64,000 nucleotides of DNA, taken from positions 18,389-82,388 of the IMG/VR virus record IMGVR_UViG_3300032288_005778. One strand, 5' to 3'. The notes below the pieces were generated by a model. That model did no database searches. It had not been told where the DNA came from and saw only the letters and a list, made by a program, of their open reading frames with translations. Position numbers and translations under genes: made by a program. Origin of the DNA: a virus. This document shows positions 21,347-26,742 of the stretch, in pieces; positions within the stretch are counted from its first letter, which is position 1, and each line of letters begins with the position of its first letter.

Positions 21347-21682
21347 TTTGTCACTATTCAATCGTGCCGTTGACAAGTTTTTAACGAGAATGCGTTGTTT
21401 CAGCCGCGCCTCTAGCAGTGTCAATCATGCCAGATGATGATTCTATCGTTATCAATCGTGCCGTTTGTTCCTGGGGATTTTAAGAAGGGCAGCGTGAATC
21501 TATCGCTGTACAAGGGTTTTAGGCAGTGACAAGTGAACGGTACGATTGAATCATGAAATCAAAAGTGCCTGTTTTTGGGGTTTTCGGGTTCTTATTCCCA
21601 TAAAAAACGCAATCGCTCAACGGAAAAGCGATCGCGTTAAAGGTGTTTTCAGAAGGTACTACTATGCTATTGTAGCACAGCC

Positions 21683-22348
21683 TCATGGCTTAAAAATTAA
21701 TGTTGATACTGAATGGTTTTTTCCTAATCTAATATCAAAAACAGCGTCGTAACATTGACGACCACTGTTCATGAGAGGTTTTCCGTTCTTAAACTGCGGA
21801 ACGCCATTAATTATTTTTTGGCACTTACTCATGGGAATACCTTCCTTGAGGTAATCCACTCTATCCGCGATCGGATAGATGTGATGAATATGTGCGTCCA
21901 AAGCATCCCACACTTTTGACTTTTCCTGAGAGCAATTCCAATCCAATGGCATTAGAAACAAGAGACGAGAATTGGGGCTATCATTGAGTAGTCGCAAAGA
22001 TTTTGCAACTGCTTCAACGCACAAAGAAAAAGGTGGGTTGGTGATGATAAGGTCGCATCCCCATATAGAAACATCATTGAAAAAGCAGCCATTAACCCAT
22101 GTAGCAAATGGGGCATTATTTATTCCTTGTAAAAATCGGGAATACTTGATTTCCACACACTCTACCGAGCGATCGCTCGGTAGGTATTTAGCTATTTGTC
22201 CAGAACCAGCAAAGGGTTCTAGTATCAGCCTGTCTGTGGGTAAGACCAGTCTAGACATGGCGACGGCAAGCCAGATAGGTGTTTCGTAGTCATCTTTTGT
22301 GAAGTCATCTGTGGTGACTTGTTCTTCAAAAAGCGCTAGTTGGTTCAC
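21683..22348 (-). CDS. Amino (N6A/N4C) DNA methyltransferase, phage type
   Basis: DDYETP, LEPFAGSG, IITNPPF. Confidence 0.88.
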   Translation of the reverse strand: MNQLALFEEQVTTDDFTKDDYETPIWLAVAMSRLVLPTDRLILEPFAGSGQIAKYLPSDRSVECVEIKYSRFLQGINNAPFATWVNGCFFNDVSIWGCDLIITNPPFSLCVEAVAKSLRLLNDSPNSRLLFLMPLDWNCSQEKSKVWDALDAHIHHIYPIADRVDYLKEGIPMSKCQKIINGVPQFKNGKPLMNSGRQCYDAVFDIRLGKNHSVSTLIFKP

Positions 22349-22356
22349 GTGGTAAG

Positions 22357-22677
22357 CTACTCCTCTATAATTGCTAAAATACGCCGTACCTGATCCGGCG
22401 TGAGTAAATCTAATCTTCTAAATGCAATCTCAAACTTTTTAAGGTTTTCTTTGTGTTTTAAATAGTCATTGAATAATTCTTGCGAATTAAACAGCATGCC
22501 ACTGTATTCCTGGACGACAATAGGAAAGTCCCCCTCTATCTTGACTTTTATCAGGTCATATCCAACACGGACATAAAAGTATGTCCGTCCTATTTTTTCT
22601 ATAATACCTTGAGAAATCTTACCTCTTGTTTTGTTGTAAGAGGTGTCCAAAAAGATCAAACTGTTACCGACTTCCAT
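22357..22677 (-). CDS. Phage hypothetical protein
   Basis: IEKIGRTYFYV motif common in small phage proteins. Confidence 0.6.
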   Translation of the reverse strand: MEVGNSLIFLDTSYNKTRGKISQGIIEKIGRTYFYVRVGYDLIKVKIEGDFPIVVQEYSGMLFNSQELFNDYLKHKENLKKFEIAFRRLDLLTPDQVRRILAIIEE

Positions 22678-22750
22678 GCCTACTTTAAAAAAACTGAATT
22701 TTAAACTTTACAGACTGCATAAACAGTCTGTAATCAAACTTTGATGCAGG

Positions 22751-23152
22751 TTATGCTTGTTTTTCAGAATAATAAATAGCAGCAGCTATTACAATTATTT
22801 TTCCAAAGATTAGTCGTTCAGAGCGCTCTAAATCTTTGGGAATTTTTATTCCCAAAAGCAGGTTAATGCCTGGGCGGTACACACTCCACAAAACCTTTTG
22901 CAGCAAGCTTGTCTTTTCTGCTGACAGCAAATCAAATGTGGTCTCCCAGTCCAAATTTATGTCTTTTAAGCTTTTGTTGAAAAAACTTTCTTGCGGATTT
23001 ACTCTTGCGAGTATAGGCAATATTTTGTTCTCTGCAATACTCAAGACAAAGCTTGATGTTGCTTTGCTTTTGTTGCATTCTTGGAGAATGCAACGGACCG
23101 TTGCCTTGTCTTGTTCTGGTAGTTGGTTATAAATTGCTGTCAACGTTACCAT
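22751..23152 (-). CDS. Hypothetical protein
   Basis: 133-aa ATG ORF bounded by hairpins. Confidence 0.55.
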   Translation of the reverse strand: MVTLTAIYNQLPEQDKATVRCILQECNKSKATSSFVLSIAENKILPILARVNPQESFFNKSLKDINLDWETTFDLLSAEKTSLLQKVLWSVYRPGINLLLGIKIPKDLERSERLIFGKIIVIAAAIYYSEKQA

Positions 23153-23223
23153 ATAAAATACCCTTCATAGGTTTAATACTTTACAAGAGTTACTTGCGGA
23201 TCATGAGAGATCCGCAAGTAAAG

Positions 23224-23451
23224 TTAAAATACATCAACTACGGGATTACCGTAGCCCCAGCGGGCATTCCAGGAAAGCCCTGACCAAGTGGTGATACGGG
23301 TAATTTTCCCGCTCTCTACTGTAATACTTGCCTGCTCTGTGGGAACTTCGCCAAAGTGAAATTCATCATTCTTGGGAAAATCAGCACCCAGTAAAGTGCG
23401 AAGTGCTGAAGCACTCTTCCAATTAGCAATAATAAATTCTTTAACGTCCAT
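23224..23451 (-). CDS. Hypothetical protein (start revised to MDVKEF)
   Basis: AGGAG RBS 7 nt upstream; lies just 3' of hammerhead A. Confidence 0.65.
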   Translation of the reverse strand: MDVKEFIIANWKSASALRTLLGADFPKNDEFHFGEVPTEQASITVESGKITRITTWSGLSWNARWGYGNPVVDVF

Positions 23452-23476
23452 GTCTGTCTCCTGTGGGGTGTAAATT

Positions 23477-23533
23477 TGGCTTCCCACTACTTGGTAGTTT
23501 CGTCCGGTAGCCAGCCGGACTCGTCAGGTGGGG
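23477..23533 (-). ncRNA. Type I hammerhead ribozyme A (pseudoknotted)
   Basis: CCCAC CUGACGA GUCCGG-cuggcua-CCGGAC GAA ACU-acca-AGU A^GUGGG aAGCCA; complete core; predicted cut 23488/23487. Confidence 0.9.
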
Positions 23534-23534
23534 A

Positions 23535-23771
23535 TTAAAAGTGTTTAACACCCCTTCTTCTTCTGACTTTTTCTATGTCACTGTAGAAAAAGTCCTTGGC
23601 ATCAAAACTAACACGATTACTGCGGGCAAAAGCCGCAGCTTTAATCGGACAATTAAAGAAGTGAAAAGAACACTGGTGTTCTTTATTTGCGTCAAGGTAC
23701 TCAACTTGTACTTCCCAAAACTTCTGTTCTGGGGCTTTGCTTAAATAATCTGGTCTTTGTAGAGCTTTCAT
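23535..23771 (-). CDS. Hypothetical protein (78 aa) between the two hammerheads
   Basis: GGGAG RBS and promoter cassette upstream. Confidence 0.7.
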   Translation of the reverse strand: MKALQRPDYLSKAPEQKFWEVQVEYLDANKEHQCSFHFFNCPIKAAAFARSNRVSFDAKDFFYSDIEKVRRRRGVKHF

Positions 23772-23888
23772 GTTGCTTGTCTCCCTGTTCTTTGATATTT
23801 CTATCTTATTCTATAAAGAAACAATTGTCAATACTGAAATTAAAATTATTTTATTTGACAAGTGTTTTTATTATAGTGGGTGTAAATT

Positions 23889-23952
23889 TGGCTTCCCACT
23901 ACTACCAGGGCGGTAGTTTCGTCCGGTAGCCAGCCGGACTCATCAGGCGGGG
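23889..23952 (-). ncRNA. Type I hammerhead ribozyme B (pseudoknotted)
   Basis: CCCGC CUGAUGA GUCCGG-cuggcua-CCGGAC GAA ACUACC-gcccu-GGUAGU A^GUGGG aAGCCA; predicted cut 23900/23899. Confidence 0.92.
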
Positions 23953-25197
23953 TTAAGCGGCTTGCAACCACTTTTCAAAAGATTTAATAGGGCGGTTGGC
24001 AGTCTCCTGAGTCTTTTTATAAGCCTCATAAGCTTCTTCTATCGCTCGTTTTTCGGCGAATTTTTTACTCGCTTCTTCTTGAAAGAAGCTTATCCGTGCC
24101 ATGACAGCATCTCTATCAAAACCGATGGACACTGAAGTCCTGACTCTATTGGATAAACCGTGTGTCCGGTCGTCAAGGTGTTCCCACACCGTGCCGTCCC
24201 TTTCGCTCCAGTTGAATGAAACGACCATATCATCGCCAACCCAAAAGCGGTTTAAAAATTTGTTATAAACCTCTTTCCGAAACCATTCTGGTTCAGGTAT
24301 AGCCAACTTGGCAGCTTCTTCAGATGCTATTTTTGCCAGTCTATCTTGCTCCCAACGAGCGCGGATAGACTCTATCTTGAACACCAACTCAGCAAATGTA
24401 ATCTTCTCACGTTTACAATATTCGTACACATACCCTTGCATCAATGCAAGGATTTGTTCTTCAGTGTTAATTTGAAGAAGATTAAGCTTTTCGCTGCACC
24501 ACAGAGTACGCCCATCTGCATGGGCGTACTCCCAGACGGTATAGTAGGTTTTATCTGAGTAGATGTCCCCTGAAAAACTTAGGGACTGATTGTAAGTTGA
24601 TTTAGTTCTTTCCTTTCCCGTGGGAACAAAGGTTTCCCCCCAGTATTTTCTGGGGAGGTCATGGCAGTAGATGTCTACTGCTGACTCCAAAGATTTTTGG
24701 TTAAACATAGCGCACGGTGCAGCGCTATGATGATATTTATGCCAGTCGTTCAAGCAGGTCAACGCTGACCGAACTTCTTTCAATAGAGGATCAATTTTTT
24801 GCTTTTCCTGGACTTTATCCCAGGAAACACATTCGTGTAACCTATCAGAATCGCTATCAATATCGCCATAGATAGCGACTTCTAAGTCGTACCAATCCAA
24901 ATCTTCTGGATTTAGGCTGGTGGTAATAACAGCCTTTAGTCCAGAGGTGTTTAGCACTCCATTTAATTCATCTGCTAATTTTTTTTGAATTTCAGGGTGA
25001 AGTTCACTTACATTTATTTTAAACATTATTTTTGTCTCCTGTTTTTGCTGTACCTGTTTTGTCTGTTCCTGTTGCTCAATCTGAGCATCAATACTGATTA
25101 ACTCATCTACCCAGCGGTAGATGTTTTGTTGTCCCCTCCCGACGCGGGAGATCAAGTTTACTAGCACCTGTCTTCTGTTTACCAAGTCCATGTCCAT
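23953..25197 (-). CDS. Hypothetical protein (414 aa)
   Basis: GGGAGG RBS, TTGACA promoter; possible internal start at QETKIM. Confidence 0.75.
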   Translation of the reverse strand: MDMDLVNRRQVLVNLISRVGRGQQNIYRWVDELISIDAQIEQQEQTKQVQQKQETKIMFKINVSELHPEIQKKLADELNGVLNTSGLKAVITTSLNPEDLDWYDLEVAIYGDIDSDSDRLHECVSWDKVQEKQKIDPLLKEVRSALTCLNDWHKYHHSAAPCAMFNQKSLESAVDIYCHDLPRKYWGETFVPTGKERTKSTYNQSLSFSGDIYSDKTYYTVWEYAHADGRTLWCSEKLNLLQINTEEQILALMQGYVYEYCKREKITFAELVFKIESIRARWEQDRLAKIASEEAAKLAIPEPEWFRKEVYNKFLNRFWVGDDMVVSFNWSERDGTVWEHLDDRTHGLSNRVRTSVSIGFDRDAVMARISFFQEEASKKFAEKRAIEEAYEAYKKTQETANRPIKSFEKWLQAA

Positions 25198-25254
25198 AAC
25201 CCTCCCGCGTCGTCTGTTTCTATATTTCCATTATGTATGGATAGAATTATTTTG

Positions 25255-25461
25255 TCAAGTCTTTTCTGAAACTTTTTTTTCGCTTTCCAGAAAAGCAGCC
25301 ATACCCCTTGCTACATCTGGGTTTCGGACGAGTCTCTCAATTAGCTCACCAAAGGCTATACATAAATGATCAGCGTAGCACTGATATACACATTTAGCTG
25401 TTGGAGTAAGCCTAAGCGTAAGTTTTGCCTTGTTTTTAGCGTAGTCTGATTGTCGTGCCAT
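25255..25461 (-). CDS. RHH-like small regulator (paralog of 33004..33225)
   Basis: KLTLRLTPTAK...ELIERLVRNPDVARGMAAF. Confidence 0.65.
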   Translation of the reverse strand: MARQSDYAKNKAKLTLRLTPTAKCVYQCYADHLCIAFGELIERLVRNPDVARGMAAFLESEKKVSEKT

Positions 25462-25469
25462 AGTCTTCC

Positions 25470-25832
25470 TTAATTGTTGGTGTCTGTCAATTCTATCATT
25501 ACATCTTGCTTACTGCTCAAATATTCAACATACTTAGCAGTTATTAGAGAGATTAATCGTTGCTGCTCTATGGGTGGTAGTCCCAAGACCACACCTAAAA
25601 CATCTTCTGCTGTTTTGGGTTTTGCCTTGCCTAAGCCCAAATATTGATCCAACTCAAAACCAGGACGGCAGCCCAAAGCTAAACACAACTCTATGTATTT
25701 CTCTAATCCTGGAGATACCTTACCTGACTGCCATTCACTAAGCGTGCCTTGAGACACGCCAGATAACTTTGCGGCTTTATTTGTGCTTTGAGCGCGTTTG
25801 CATATACTAGTAATCAATGCGCCTAAGTTCAT
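25470..25832 (-). CDS. XRE-family HTH regulator
   Basis: AAKLSGVSQGTLSEWQSGKVSPG. Confidence 0.85.
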   Translation of the reverse strand: MNLGALITSICKRAQSTNKAAKLSGVSQGTLSEWQSGKVSPGLEKYIELCLALGCRPGFELDQYLGLGKAKPKTAEDVLGVVLGLPPIEQQRLISLITAKYVEYLSSKQDVMIELTDTNN

Positions 25833-26440
25833 AACAACCTGATGTAGAAATCATCCCCACTGGCAATATCTATGAAGTTGTAGATATCCAGTACGCTACC
25901 AGTATTGTCCTCAAAGAGTTCAGTATCAGCGATCGCCTCTAAGGTATTGAAACTAGGAATAACCCGACCACTTTCAATAGTCCAGATGGTTCTAGAAATC
26001 AAGGAAAAATCTTGAGAAGAACACATATCTGCTAATACTTGCTTAGTTATTCCCTTCTTTTCCCTAGTGGATTTAATTAATCCCCCTAACCTGTACAACC
26101 CGTCCTTGACCCATCTTTTTCTTTGCTTAGATACAGGGAATTCAACGTAGGGTGTTTGGCTAATAATATCTATGCACTCATAAATGCCTAAGAGCTTACC
26201 TGAATCATCACGAAGTAAACCTGATGCTGCTATAGCTTCTATTAGGTTATACGCAGGACAAGTTTTCCCCTGTTCCATTTGCTTTAGCGCAGTGTAATTA
26301 ACCGCAAAAAACTTGTCAGAACATATCTGCGAGAAGTACCGCAGACTCATTTTTGCATCCTGGCGAGAACGTTTGACCATTACTCCCAGTTTAGCCATTC
26401 CCTCTTTTGTCCATTTTTTTCTGTATCCTGTTCTGTTCAT
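25829..26440 (-). CDS. Tandem XRE-HTH regulator (two similar halves)
   Basis: W...G...LG..(V/I)K..R... and E.G...P..N..EAIA repeated twice. Confidence 0.8.
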   Translation of the reverse strand: MNRTGYRKKWTKEGMAKLGVMVKRSRQDAKMSLRYFSQICSDKFFAVNYTALKQMEQGKTCPAYNLIEAIAASGLLRDDSGKLLGIYECIDIISQTPYVEFPVSKQRKRWVKDGLYRLGGLIKSTREKKGITKQVLADMCSSQDFSLISRTIWTIESGRVIPSFNTLEAIADTELFEDNTGSVLDIYNFIDIASGDDFYIRLL

Positions 26441-26550
26441 ATTTTTTTACCGTTCACATATTCACACAAAATATCATAAATTTTTGTAATTCTCTTGTGT
26501 ATCATGAGATATTATGGTATTATGATATTGTGATACACGAATAAGGAGAA

Positions 26551-26742
26551 ATGAATTTAACAAGAATCAAAGCTAGAGACAAACAACAGATTAGGATTGA
26601 CCCTAAATTGCACCAAAGAATTAAGATTTTAGCCGCAGAACATCACACTGAAATAGGTTTATTAGCTGAACAATTAATTCTTTTAGGCATAGAAAGCTTG
26701 AAAGATGAAAGTACAAGACATGATCAAAAATCATCGCGGTAG
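26551..26742 (+). CDS. Arc/RHH-like regulator divergent from the XRE genes (Cro-equivalent position)
   Basis: AAGGAG RBS; QIRIDPKLHQRIKILAAE. Confidence 0.75.
   Translation: MNLTRIKARDKQQIRIDPKLHQRIKILAAEHHTEIGLLAEQLILLGIESLKDESTRHDQKSSR

Follow-up and report, generated by a model that had tools for sequence, protein, structure and literature searches.

Clustered hammerhead ribozymes in phage DNA are the closest described counterparts of the locus analysed here. Perreault et al. 2011 (PMC3088659) reported prophage hammerheads that occur in clusters and flank genes, proposed that long transcripts are processed by them into mRNAs of one gene each, and raised the possibility of circular products. 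Tandem sets were reported to cleave in vitro and one set in E. coli, and fast cleavage required a pseudoknot (PMC3088659). Processing of polycistronic transcripts was also suggested in the review by Weinberg 2019, where it is treated as unproven, and both sources, in the sections drawn on here, still describe the biological role of hammerheads in phages as unknown (PMC3088659; Weinberg 2019). A second related group is formed by retrozymes and viroid-like RNAs, which are described as carrying two type I hammerheads in direct repeat around a unit of a few hundred nucleotides, whose ends, once both sites are cleaved, could re-form the ribozyme (PMC7761336).

The locus lies in a 64,000-nt stretch of a phage record of 82,388 b; the whole stretch is called the window throughout. 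Its minus strand carries two complete type I hammerheads, HH-A and HH-B, at gene boundaries, both on the coding strand of an operon and with a single 78-aa gene (ORF78) between them (Table 1). As in the clusters described by Perreault et al. 2011 (PMC3088659), closely spaced hammerheads with a stem I-stem II pseudoknot are found on the coding strand, where they flank single genes or short blocks in phage DNA. Unlike the clusters as that paper presents them, the hammerheads studied here belong to cyanophages related to Aphanizomenon phage CL131, one of the two ribozymes precedes a promoter-like site and not a gene start, the 5' strand of stem I recurs as a conserved second copy in the 3' product, and relatives have a 2H phosphodiesterase nearby. 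We found no report of hammerheads in CL131-like cyanophages, the genome paper of CL131 does not mention ribozymes, and the hit lists of Perreault et al. 2011 may already include members of the group. The direct repeat, the length of the unit and the ends that could re-form a ribozyme are shared with retrozymes and viroid-like RNAs. In contrast to the retrozymes as described in PMC7761336, the present unit is part of a DNA phage operon and carries a protein gene with a promoter-like site of its own. Nothing pointed to reverse transcription or to copying by a rolling circle, and no circle was found in the RNA contigs, none of which spans a hammerhead.

The explanation that we favour, with moderate confidence, is that HH-A and HH-B are genuine type I hammerheads with a pseudoknot between loop II and the 3' tail, and that they act at the gene boundaries of the operon to uncouple its cistrons into single-gene RNAs. 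What is observed is the motif, its covariation and the way it recurs between stop and start codons in relatives; judged from the sequence, the two ribozymes probably cut a long phage transcript into single-gene pieces.

Table 1. Coordinates of the hammerheads, genes and predicted RNA elements in the window
Feature	Position	Strand	Description
HH-A	23886..23952	minus	type I hammerhead; fold, core pattern, covariance model, covariation
HH-A stem I	23951-23947 with 23899-23895	minus	CCCGC with GUGGG
HH-A core	23946-23940	minus	CUGAUGA
HH-A stem II	23939-23934 with 23926-23921	minus	GUCCGG/CCGGAC, 6 bp, loop CUGGCUA
HH-A GAAA	23920-23917	minus	
HH-A stem III	23917-23912 with 23906-23901	minus	ACUACC/GGUAGU
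HH-A predicted cut	A23900 / G23899	minus	GUA/G
HH-A pseudoknot	23932-23928 with 23893-23889	minus	loop II UGGCU with tail AGCCA
HH-B	23474..23533	minus	type I hammerhead; fold, core pattern, covariance model
HH-B stem I	23532-23528 with 23487-23483	minus	CCCAC/GUGGG
HH-B core	23527-23521	minus	CUGACGA
HH-B stem III	23498-23496 with 23491-23489	minus	ACU/AGU, 3 pairs only, loop ACCA
HH-B predicted cut	A23488 / G23487	minus	GUA/G
414-aa ORF	23953..25197	minus	no assigned function; stop TAA 23955-23953, then 1 nt, then HH-A stem I
78-aa ORF (ORF78, MKALQRP...)	23535..23771	minus	no assigned function; stop TAA 23537-23535, 2 nt before HH-B stem I
75-aa ORF (MDVKEF...)	23224..23451	minus	first gene downstream of HH-B
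Promoter-like site	23803..23831	minus	TTGACA-17 nt-TAAGAT, within the 412-nt unit, upstream of ORF78; 10/12 consensus positions
Predicted 5' hairpin of HH-A 3' product	23876..23899	minus	GUGGG / 14-nt loop / CCCAC; predicted fold -6.3 kcal/mol
HH-B 3'-product leader	23449..23487	minus	predicted hairpin GUGGG...CCCAC 23487-23463, fold -7.2 kcal/mol
Shine-Dalgarno sequence	23462-23457	minus	AGGAGA, after the HH-B leader hairpin; ATG 23451-23449

Structure and covariation of the two hammerheads

The conserved hammerhead core is present in both copies, as CUGAUGA...GAAA...GUA/G in HH-A and as CUGACGA...GAAA...GUA/G in HH-B. The first-pass annotation had placed two type I hammerheads on the minus strand, and the core, stems and cut sites that it described were all recovered where it had put them, as were the start of each hammerhead within 2 nt of a stop codon (1 nt for HH-A, 2 nt for HH-B) and the 412-nt unit between the two cuts (23899..23488). 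HH-A and HH-B are identical over 34 nt of core and a 25-nt tail, stem II and its loop are the same in both, and stem III of HH-B carries a 7-nt deletion. Stem III was said to differ between the copies and yet to pair in each, which holds for 6 bp in HH-A and 3 bp in HH-B. Both copies have a three-way junction as their minimum-energy fold, in which loops close stems II and III and stem I is left open; the three pairs of HH-B stem III are lost in the centroid fold. With a stem III of only 3 bp, HH-B is probably the weaker ribozyme, and a short helix III often blocks cleavage by monomeric type I hammerheads, as stated in two papers, PMC7761336 among them. A dimeric rescue of HH-B was also considered; judged by eye, pairing between the stem III strands of the two copies would benefit the HH-A site alone.

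A 34-nt pattern occurred twice, compared with no occurrence in 100 shuffles, and a structural scan of the 82,388-b record, type II hammerheads excepted, returned HH-A and HH-B only, with no hit in each of 20 shuffles. A chance origin of both motifs is excluded. Comparison with hammerhead models had been named as a check in the first-pass annotation. Over the whole window there was no Rfam match at gathering scores, and in E-value mode HH-B was matched below threshold by Hammerhead_1 (RF00163) with 22 bits against a cut-off of 34, and HH-A only by Hammerhead_3 (RF00008) with 17 bits. HH-B was aligned end to end with Hammerhead_1, over model positions 1-45, and agrees with this model in its core, in having three helices and in its open stem I; unlike the model, the hammerheads of the window have a long loop II, a longer stem III and a pseudoknot. 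A covariance model (R1) was built from 22 relatives with the window copies left out. It scored HH-A at 83.3 bits (E 6e-22) and HH-B, in which it matched only 3 of the 6 stem III pairs, at 69.5 bits (E 6e-18), and gave no further match up to E 10.

Covariation was assessed in two alignments, A2 with 19 and A3 with 22 sequences, of roughly 35-40 distinct subfamily members. The loci L017/L156, whose stem III has a 60-nt insert, were excluded from both alignments and L080 from A3. In A3, 95.4% of the cells pair and 16 of the 22 pairs vary on both sides, values that were reached by 0 of 500 shuffles, a count that is not a probability because the rows are related. Slid controls, in which the relatedness is kept, were 28-46% paired. 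Alignment A2 agrees with A3, with 13 of 22 pairs varying on both sides. The pairing between loop II UGGCU and AGCCA 3' of stem I, also put forward in the first-pass annotation, is complementary, and both-side changes were found in 3 of its 5 pairs in A2 as well as A3; among relatives, UGGCU/AGCCA is replaced by UGACU/AGUCA, UGGUUA/UAACCA and others. At least 4 Watson-Crick pairs between loop and tail were found in 20 of 29 distinct combinations versus 22% with the tails swapped. The 21 of 64 loci listed as 'NOFIT' rows were set aside. At the level of sequence, covariation backs stems I-III and the pseudoknot between loop II and the 3' tail, and it shows selection on the RNA fold and not on the DNA sequence alone.

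Placement at gene boundaries in the window and in relatives

The operon begins with two HTH regulators and a 68-aa ORF, continues with the 414-aa ORF, HH-A, ORF78, HH-B and the 75-aa ORF, and ends with a 133-aa ORF, a ProQ-C-like protein and a DNA methyltransferase. We propose that this operon, which runs leftward on the minus strand, belongs to a CL131-like cyanophage and is of the early or regulatory kind. The 414-aa, 78-aa, 75-aa and 133-aa ORFs matched no Pfam or PHROG family; in the Protein Data Bank ORF78 had no match and the 414-aa ORF two only, with E about 0.5. The 75-aa ORF is listed as 87 aa from an upstream GTG, and the ATG at 23451 comes after a Shine-Dalgarno sequence. Homologues of the 414-aa ORF (about 365-431 aa) lie directly upstream of a hammerhead in the related loci L003, L005, L010, L014 and L015. 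ORF78 shares 41% identity (E 2e-17) with an ORF of 77 aa in L010; this ORF, too, lies between two hammerheads and has a promoter-like site ahead of it. We infer a cyanobacterial host from the match to CL131 and from the palindrome GCGATCGC, which we take to be a mark of cyanobacteria and which occurs 27 times versus 0.13 expected. A scan of genome contigs gave only a Gorillibacterium MAG and a Verrucomicrobiia MAG.

Placement next to stop and start codons recurs in the relatives. In the GUGGG subfamily, an ORF stop lies -1 to +12 nt from stem I, mostly at 0-5 nt, in 29 of 33 distinct hammerheads, and the distance from the cut to an ATG is mostly 31-41 nt. When all distinct type I matches in the loci compared were taken together, a stop within -6 to +12 nt was found for 108 of 187, compared with 76 of 594 random positions, and an ORF with an ATG no more than 150 nt from the cut for 167 of 187 (median 31 nt). 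Relative records hold 2-5 hammerheads each, the cultured Aphanizomenon phage vB_AphaS-CL131 having 2, at record positions of about 105182 and 98390. The arrays in relatives comprise 2-4 hammerheads. Single small genes bracketed by hammerhead arrays, in units of 344-457 nt, were found in L003, L006/L015, L010 and L011/L013. In the first-pass annotation, cleavage of read-through RNA into single-gene pieces was suggested, which is in line with these comparative data and with the proposal published by Perreault et al. 2011 (PMC3088659). Among metagenome contigs at 64 loci, a few end 10-13 nt past a cut (L137, L179) and none ends at the cut itself.

The processing reading would involve the following steps. 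The RNA would fold during transcription and cut itself 3' of A17, as suggested by the fold and the core. By hammerhead chemistry, the upstream mRNA would then carry a 2',3'-cyclic phosphate at its end, just past the stop codon, where the ribozyme forms a compact fold. A 5'-OH would mark the start of the downstream RNA, followed by a short GUGGG...CCCAC hairpin, whose layout is taken from the sequence and whose folding is predicted. At HH-B this hairpin would stand immediately ahead of the next gene's Shine-Dalgarno sequence and ATG, and at HH-A ahead of a separate ORF78 promoter. In this way neighbouring cistrons would be uncoupled into single-gene RNAs with defined, protected ends, in an insulator-like manner. 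In synthetic insulators of the RiboJ type, a short hairpin and a ribosome-binding site come after the hammerhead, and cleavage fixes the 5' leader whatever lies upstream. The order of hammerhead, hairpin and ribosome-binding site resembles that of RiboJ; unlike RiboJ, the present arrangement is natural and insulation is predicted.

The 14-nt loop of the predicted hairpin of the HH-A 3' product contains the pseudoknot partner, and the CCCAC of the hairpin, a second copy of the stem I 5' strand, is kept in most subfamily relatives. As a general rule for hammerheads the 5' hairpin was rejected: it was found in 11 of 110 clusters versus 2.6 expected, but with the sequences reversed there were 8, and 9 of the 11 came from a single subfamily. 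The hairpin is retained as a putative feature of the subfamily only, with two independent cases, L058 and L080. A promoter-like TTGACA-17-TAnnnT layout after a hammerhead was found in four sequence versions, namely in the window, in L014/L136/L177, in L010/L180 and in L150. Because a promoter-like site and not a start codon follows HH-A, expression of ORF78 would need no upstream processing. Transcription from TTGACA-17-TAAGAT is predicted to start near 23796.

RNA data comprised six runs, each with 0.09-0.13 of the stretch, and four of them (X15-X18) were aligned to positions 21600-26600 at 90% likeness. The sequences from X15-X18 are Logan contigs, and because they are mostly 90-95% alike they appear to come from relatives. 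None covers 23474-23533 or 23886-23952, and no joints or end pile-ups were seen in these contigs, which span neither hammerhead. RNA contigs over 23564-23771 stop matching at the ORF78 start codon and continue into unlike sequence, and a contig of run X17 matches 23786-23867 (82 nt) exactly and has other flanks.

Other explanations and the meaning of the locus

A tentative alternative, which we hold to be clearly less likely than processing, is that the hammerheads are repeats at module boundaries. A cassette of promoter, ORF78 and hammerhead would have recombined into a single hammerhead after the 414-aa gene, the ribozyme sequence serving as homology for gene swaps and duplications between phages, and HH-A would be functional and HH-B decaying. 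The identity of the two copies over core and tail and the deletion in stem III of HH-B are consistent with such an origin. So are the closest relatives, L005 and L014, which have one hammerhead after the 414-aa homologue, with a tail and a Shine-Dalgarno sequence that resemble those of HH-B. The promoter-like spacer precedes differing genes across contigs, MKAL(E/Q)RP in the window and L014 and MK(V/I)YFFS in L136 and L177, the 82-nt promoter piece is found in other flanks in the RNA contig, and tandem-duplicated paralogous genes, each with its own hammerhead, are present in L006/L015 and L010. On the other hand, L010 has the same layout of hammerhead, promoter, ORF78 homologue and hammerhead, and its downstream copy has a complete stem III of 6 bp; the layout is therefore kept and is not just a recent accident, and the covariation shows selection on the RNA fold. 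Since recombination of this kind would explain the origin of the pair and not the role of the ribozymes, it is compatible with processing into single-gene RNAs.

The first-pass annotation had also suggested a circular mRNA, for which no support was obtained and which we regard as very improbable. The 412-nt piece, cut at both hammerheads, would be closed either through the reverse hammerhead reaction or through a host ligase of the RtcB type, and the circle would hold ORF78 with its ribosome-binding site. Because the stem I 3' strand and the pseudoknot tail are shared by the two copies, the 5' end made at HH-A would fit HH-B exactly; the excised unit retains the parts to re-form HH-B around its own two ends, and in its centroid fold the CCCAC of HH-B is the partner of the 5' GUGGG. 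In its minimum-energy fold, however, the nearby CCCAC is used, which would keep the 5' end from HH-B; with its 3-bp stem III, HH-B may in any case cleave poorly. Moreover, because the promoter-like site within the unit is conserved, many ORF78 transcripts would begin with a triphosphate downstream of HH-A. In metazoan retrozymes tandem type I hammerheads are reported to yield circles (PMC7761336), whereas Perreault et al. (PMC3088659) examined clustered phage hammerheads for products that were circular or spliced without detecting any.

Among enzymes for joining and end handling, RtcB, RNA_ligase, AAA_33 kinase and the 2H cyclic phosphodiesterase (CPD) families were absent from the 82-kb phage record, and RtcB was found in 0 of 5 relatives; it was found in 10 of 14 control genomes, the cyanobacterium Synechococcus elongatus not being among the 10. 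A CPD gene lies 0.5-1.4 kb downstream of hammerheads in 4 of 5 relatives, and the CPD proteins of the relatives, one of which is encoded at 2134-2562 of L006, matched no PHROG family. Together with a CL131 gene annotated as polynucleotide kinase/phosphatase, these genes hint at enzymatic handling of such RNA ends, but in the window the CPD gene is reduced to a 21-codon remnant. It is similarly doubtful, and to us very unlikely, that in CL131-like phages these candidate enzymes act on the ribozyme-made ends and a host ligase joins them, giving circular or re-joined mRNAs or RNA units mobile between phages, with the window as a variant without the phosphodiesterase. Least probable of all is that the ribozyme folds only on untranslated RNA, because stem I lies 1-2 nt after the stop and the footprint of a terminating ribosome would cover stem I and core, and that it severs or marks poorly translated transcripts and not all; the short gaps between stop and stem I in the subfamily and the frequency of stops near stem I among the type I matches would fit, but the tight spacing may just reflect compact phage genomes, and hammerheads fold and cut in seconds to minutes during transcription, possibly ahead of ribosomes.

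Under the processing reading, the arrangement is of an already known kind, phage hammerheads at gene boundaries having been known since 2011 (PMC3088659). What is added here is a well-defined cyanophage subfamily with clear covariation, in which the layout is strict: the ribozyme comes after a stop codon and is followed by a promoter or by a leader with a start codon. In the relatives, the association with a 2H phosphodiesterase deserves to be tested. The same family occurs twice in the cultured pair vB_AphaS-CL131 / Aphanizomenon flos-aquae 2012/KM1/D3, which therefore offers a natural system in which the effects of such ribozymes on mRNA stability and translation, and the healing or joining of the ends, can be tested.

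Two hammerhead ribozymes and their relatives

The source record, an IMG/VR virus record of 82,388 b with a completeness rating of 83%, includes the window as its bases 18389-82388. The first-pass annotation described two complete type I hammerheads on the minus strand of the window, here HH-A and HH-B, and all the features it named were found in the sequence (see table). Both ribozymes start within 2 nt of a stop codon, as claimed. They share 34 identical nt of core and 25 identical nt from the cut site onward. Stem III was said to differ between the copies and yet to pair in both; it does, with a 7-nt deletion in HH-B relative to HH-A that leaves three pairs. The proposed pseudoknot between UGGCU of loop II and AGCCA, 1 nt beyond stem I, is possible by complementarity in both copies and covaries in relatives. 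The coordinates of the 412-nt unit between the two cuts, holding a 78-aa ORF (ORF78), also agree.

The 34-nt pattern occurs twice, versus 0 in 100 shuffles, and when the full record was searched by structure for type I and III hammerheads, HH-A and HH-B alone came up (0 in 20 shuffles). Minimum-energy folds contain the three-way junction in both, while stem III is absent from the centroid fold of HH-B. At Rfam gathering scores the window had no match; in E-value mode HH-B reached 22 bits with Hammerhead_1 (cut-off 34) and HH-A was seen only as a 17-bit Hammerhead_3 match. As an independent test, covariance model R1 was built on 22 aligned relatives with the window copies excluded (alignment A3). 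HH-A obtained 83.3 bits with this model (E 6e-22) and HH-B obtained 69.5 bits (E 6e-18), with no further match in the 64-kb window up to E 10. The reported observation of two hammerheads is confirmed.

Coordinates of the ribozymes, neighboring features and related loci (window positions unless a record or locus is named)
Feature	Position	Strand	Details
HH-A	23952-23886	minus	1 nt after stop codon TAA (23955-23953) of 414-aa ORF; stem I CCCGC with GUGGG, one G-U pair included; core CUGAUGA; stem II GUCCGG/CCGGAC, loop CUGGCUA; GAAA, then stem III ACUACC/GGUAGU
HH-A predicted cut	23900/23899	minus	between GUA and G
HH-B	23533-23474	minus	2 nt after stop codon TAA (23537-23535) of ORF78; stem I CCCAC/GUGGG, A-U pair where HH-A has G-U; core CUGACGA; stem II and loop identical to HH-A; stem III ACU/AGU, three pairs only, loop ACCA
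HH-B predicted cut	23488/23487	minus	
Promoter-like site	23831-23803		TTGACA-17 nt-TAAGAT in AT-rich spacer between HH-A and ORF78; 10/12 consensus positions
ProQ C-terminal-like phage protein	22357-22677	minus	106 aa; PF24203, E 2.5e-8; three genes downstream of HH-B, same operon
Strong terminator-like hairpin	21638-21606		last in order in leftward operon
CL131 hammerhead 1	record 105169-105233		between gp142 and gp141
CL131 hammerhead 2	MG209611.1 98377-98442 = L201:35584-35649	minus	directly after gp131; 63.3 bits
2H cyclic phosphodiesterase-like protein	L006:2134-2562	plus	122-142 aa in the two loci, two HxT/S motifs; PF08302
2H cyclic phosphodiesterase-like protein	L004:630-998	minus	as above
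Further PF08302-like loci	G001:3854-3997; G002:12969-13130; G004:19539-19700		
Further PF08302-like locus	MG209611.1:96808-96993	minus	

Exact-pattern scans with the stem II of the window yielded 13 loci in IMG/VR and, elsewhere, 64 metagenome loci and 2 genome contigs; a looser pattern yielded at least 120 loci. Among the matches listed, the type I fold fits 116 of 145 distinct ones. In A3, 95.4% of cells are paired and 16 of 22 pairs show both-sided changes, values reached by 0 of 500 shuffles; because the aligned sequences are related, these counts are not probabilities, and controls with slid partners or swapped tails are the fairer comparison. Sliding the partners lowered pairing to 28-46%. 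Inclusion of the window copies (alignment A2) gave the same covariation picture. Stem II GUCCGG/CCGGAC is replaced in relatives by GGGAGG/CCUCCC, GGGCGG/CCGCCC and GGACGG/CCGUCC, and the pseudoknot UGGCU/AGCCA by UGACU/AGUCA, UGGUUA/UAACCA, GGGAUA/UAUCC and others. At least four Watson-Crick pseudoknot pairs are formed by 20 of 29 distinct loop/tail combinations, versus 22% with tails swapped.

Variants were also observed. Three loci (core starts L010:2519, L014:5751 and L200:2507) carry an extra U between core A9 and stem II (CUGAUGA-U-stem II) with all helices kept. A copy in L004 (minus strand, core at 6677) and L188:563, upstream of a homologue of the 414-aa gene, keeps the core and stem II intact but lacks both a cut site and a 3' strand that would match stem I. 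The hairpin CCACCUCG...CGAGGUG takes the place of its 3' part, and the ribozyme is probably dead or rearranged.

Gene context and recurrence of the layout

A leftward operon carries HH-A and HH-B on its coding strand, and a rightward operon diverges from it at ~26500. The leftward operon encodes, in order, two HTH regulators (203 and 120 aa), a 68-aa ORF and the 414-aa ORF, followed by HH-A, ORF78, HH-B, a 75-aa ORF, a 133-aa ORF, the ProQ C-terminal-like protein and a DNA methyltransferase. ProQ, namesake of the PF24203 family, is an RNA chaperone.

The palindrome GCGATCGC occurs 27 times in the whole window versus 0.13 expected, no tRNA genes were found there, and among GenBank phages similar DNA occurs only in Aphanizomenon phage vB_AphaS-CL131 (MG209611.1; CL131). 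A filamentous cyanobacterium is the probable host. CL131 has two copies of the same ribozyme family, the second of which overlaps the annotated 75-nt CDS gp130 (record 98349-98423); gp130 is therefore probably not a gene. The words 'ribozyme' and 'hammerhead' are absent from the main text of the CL131 genome paper, and a literature search on hammerhead and cyanophage returned nothing on phage-borne ribozymes.

R1 matched four, five, two and four times in the related records G001 to G004, respectively, and twice in CL131. Many of the hammerheads in related records are arrayed around single small genes: four in L010 (units of 448, 395 and 398 nt), three in L006/L015 (457 and 346 nt), two in L003 (344 nt) and two in L011/L013 (384 nt), while two in L014 surround two genes (886 nt). 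L010 contains the direct counterpart of the window unit: hammerhead, promoter-like site, a 77-aa ORF (41% identity to ORF78, E 2e-17) and a hammerhead, here with a full 6-bp stem III. In the subfamily of the window pair, with GUGGG as stem I 3' strand, an ORF stops near stem I in 29 of 33 distinct hammerheads, mostly 0-5 nt off, and the next ATG mostly follows the cut by 31-41 nt. Among the distinct type I matches listed, stem I is close to an ORF stop in 108 of 187, versus 76 of 594 random positions, and 167 of 187 have an ATG-ORF within 150 nt (median 31 nt). Dense arrays were also seen in L112, an unrelated IMG/VR contig with nine type I hammerheads in ~5.5 kb (1341-6891, plus strand; units of 288-1693 nt; a start codon ~20-40 nt beyond each), and in L027, with four in 1.5 kb.

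Four of five relatives encode a PF08302-like protein on the strand of a hammerhead and 0.5-1.4 kb downstream of it, with a score above cut-off in three; the L004 and L006 proteins score 27.6 and 32.1 bits (cut-off 23). It was found in none of 14 control genomes and PHROG had no family for it. The gap that separates the 133-aa ORF from the ProQ-like gene (22678-22750, minus) translates to PASKFDYRLFMQSVKFKIQFF*, which resembles the C-terminus of this 2H phosphodiesterase (71% over 21 aa, E 2e-4, tblastn). The window has apparently lost the gene, leaving a 21-codon C-terminal remnant at about 22688-22750. In CL131 one gene is annotated as polynucleotide kinase/phosphatase. Both enzymes act on end types made by hammerheads. 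The 2H protein might heal RNA ends, repair tRNA or degrade cyclic-nucleotide signals; for the pair of enzymes, tRNA repair or anti-defence would be equally possible uses.

Predicted cleavage at gene boundaries and a possible circular alternative

Self-cleavage at the gene boundaries of the leftward operon is predicted, and is the best-supported reading. The upstream mRNA would end in the ribozyme fold and carry a 2',3'-cyclic phosphate, and the downstream RNA would begin with a 5'-OH hairpin leader, whereby neighboring cistrons would be uncoupled. Perreault et al. 2011 (PMC3088659) made the same proposal for clustered prophage hammerheads, and reported that tandem sets cleaved in vitro, one set in E. 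coli, and that pseudoknots of this sort were required for fast cleavage. The purpose of such hammerheads is described as still undefined in the Weinberg 2019 review. According to two papers, one of them de la Pena et al. 2020 (PMC7761336), type I hammerheads with a short helix III often fail to cleave as monomers, and the three-pair stem III makes cleavage of HH-B a concern.

Both 3' products open with GUGGG and carry a second CCCAC 14-15 nt further on. The isolated leaders fold into a predicted 5'-terminal hairpin (-6.3 kcal/mol for HH-A, -7.2 for HH-B), which in HH-B ends 1 nt before AGGAGA, followed by ATG at 23451. CCCAC is retained in most subfamily members around a variable loop; the corresponding pair in L080 is UGUGG and CCACA, while L058 combines GUGGG and CCCAC in a ribozyme that differs elsewhere. 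As a general hammerhead rule the 5'-hairpin fails controls, and we therefore infer it as a feature of this subfamily only.

Promoter-like sites in the region are not above chance (14 versus 11.3 expected). The layout TTGACA-17-TAnnnT after a hammerhead nevertheless exists in four sequence versions (window; L014/L136/L177; L010/L180; L150), with different downstream genes. An exact copy of 23786-23867 (82 nt, 0 differences) is present in a 793-nt RNA contig from metatranscriptome run X17 with both flanks unlike, and this AT-rich piece is apparently a shared module. We take the TTGACA-17-TAAGAT spacer to be a genuine promoter module. Such a promoter within the unit would mean that HH-A serves the 3' end of the upstream gene or shields the promoter from read-through, and that it does not release ORF78.

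The interpretation offered earlier is partly supported: cutting at gene boundaries agrees with the recurrent layout, but the circular mRNA gained no support. Closure of the 412-nt unit into a circle after cutting at both hammerheads is physically possible, as the 5' end from HH-A fits HH-B, and the two are paired in the centroid fold of the unit. In the minimum-energy fold, however, that end pairs with the nearby CCCAC instead. Several findings speak against the circle: the promoter-like site would be internal to it, the RtcB, RNA_ligase, AAA_33 kinase and CPD families gave no match in the phage record, RtcB was found in none of five relatives, and a remark in Perreault et al. 2011 (PMC3088659) is negative on circular products of clustered hammerheads. 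We consider the circle very improbable. None of the metatranscriptome RNA contigs aligned to the region covers a hammerhead, so they neither support nor refute it.

Cleavage at gene boundaries remains the favored account. The window pair, in cyanophages, belongs to a kind known since 2011, and what it offers is a clean subfamily together with a cultured system, CL131, for testing function.
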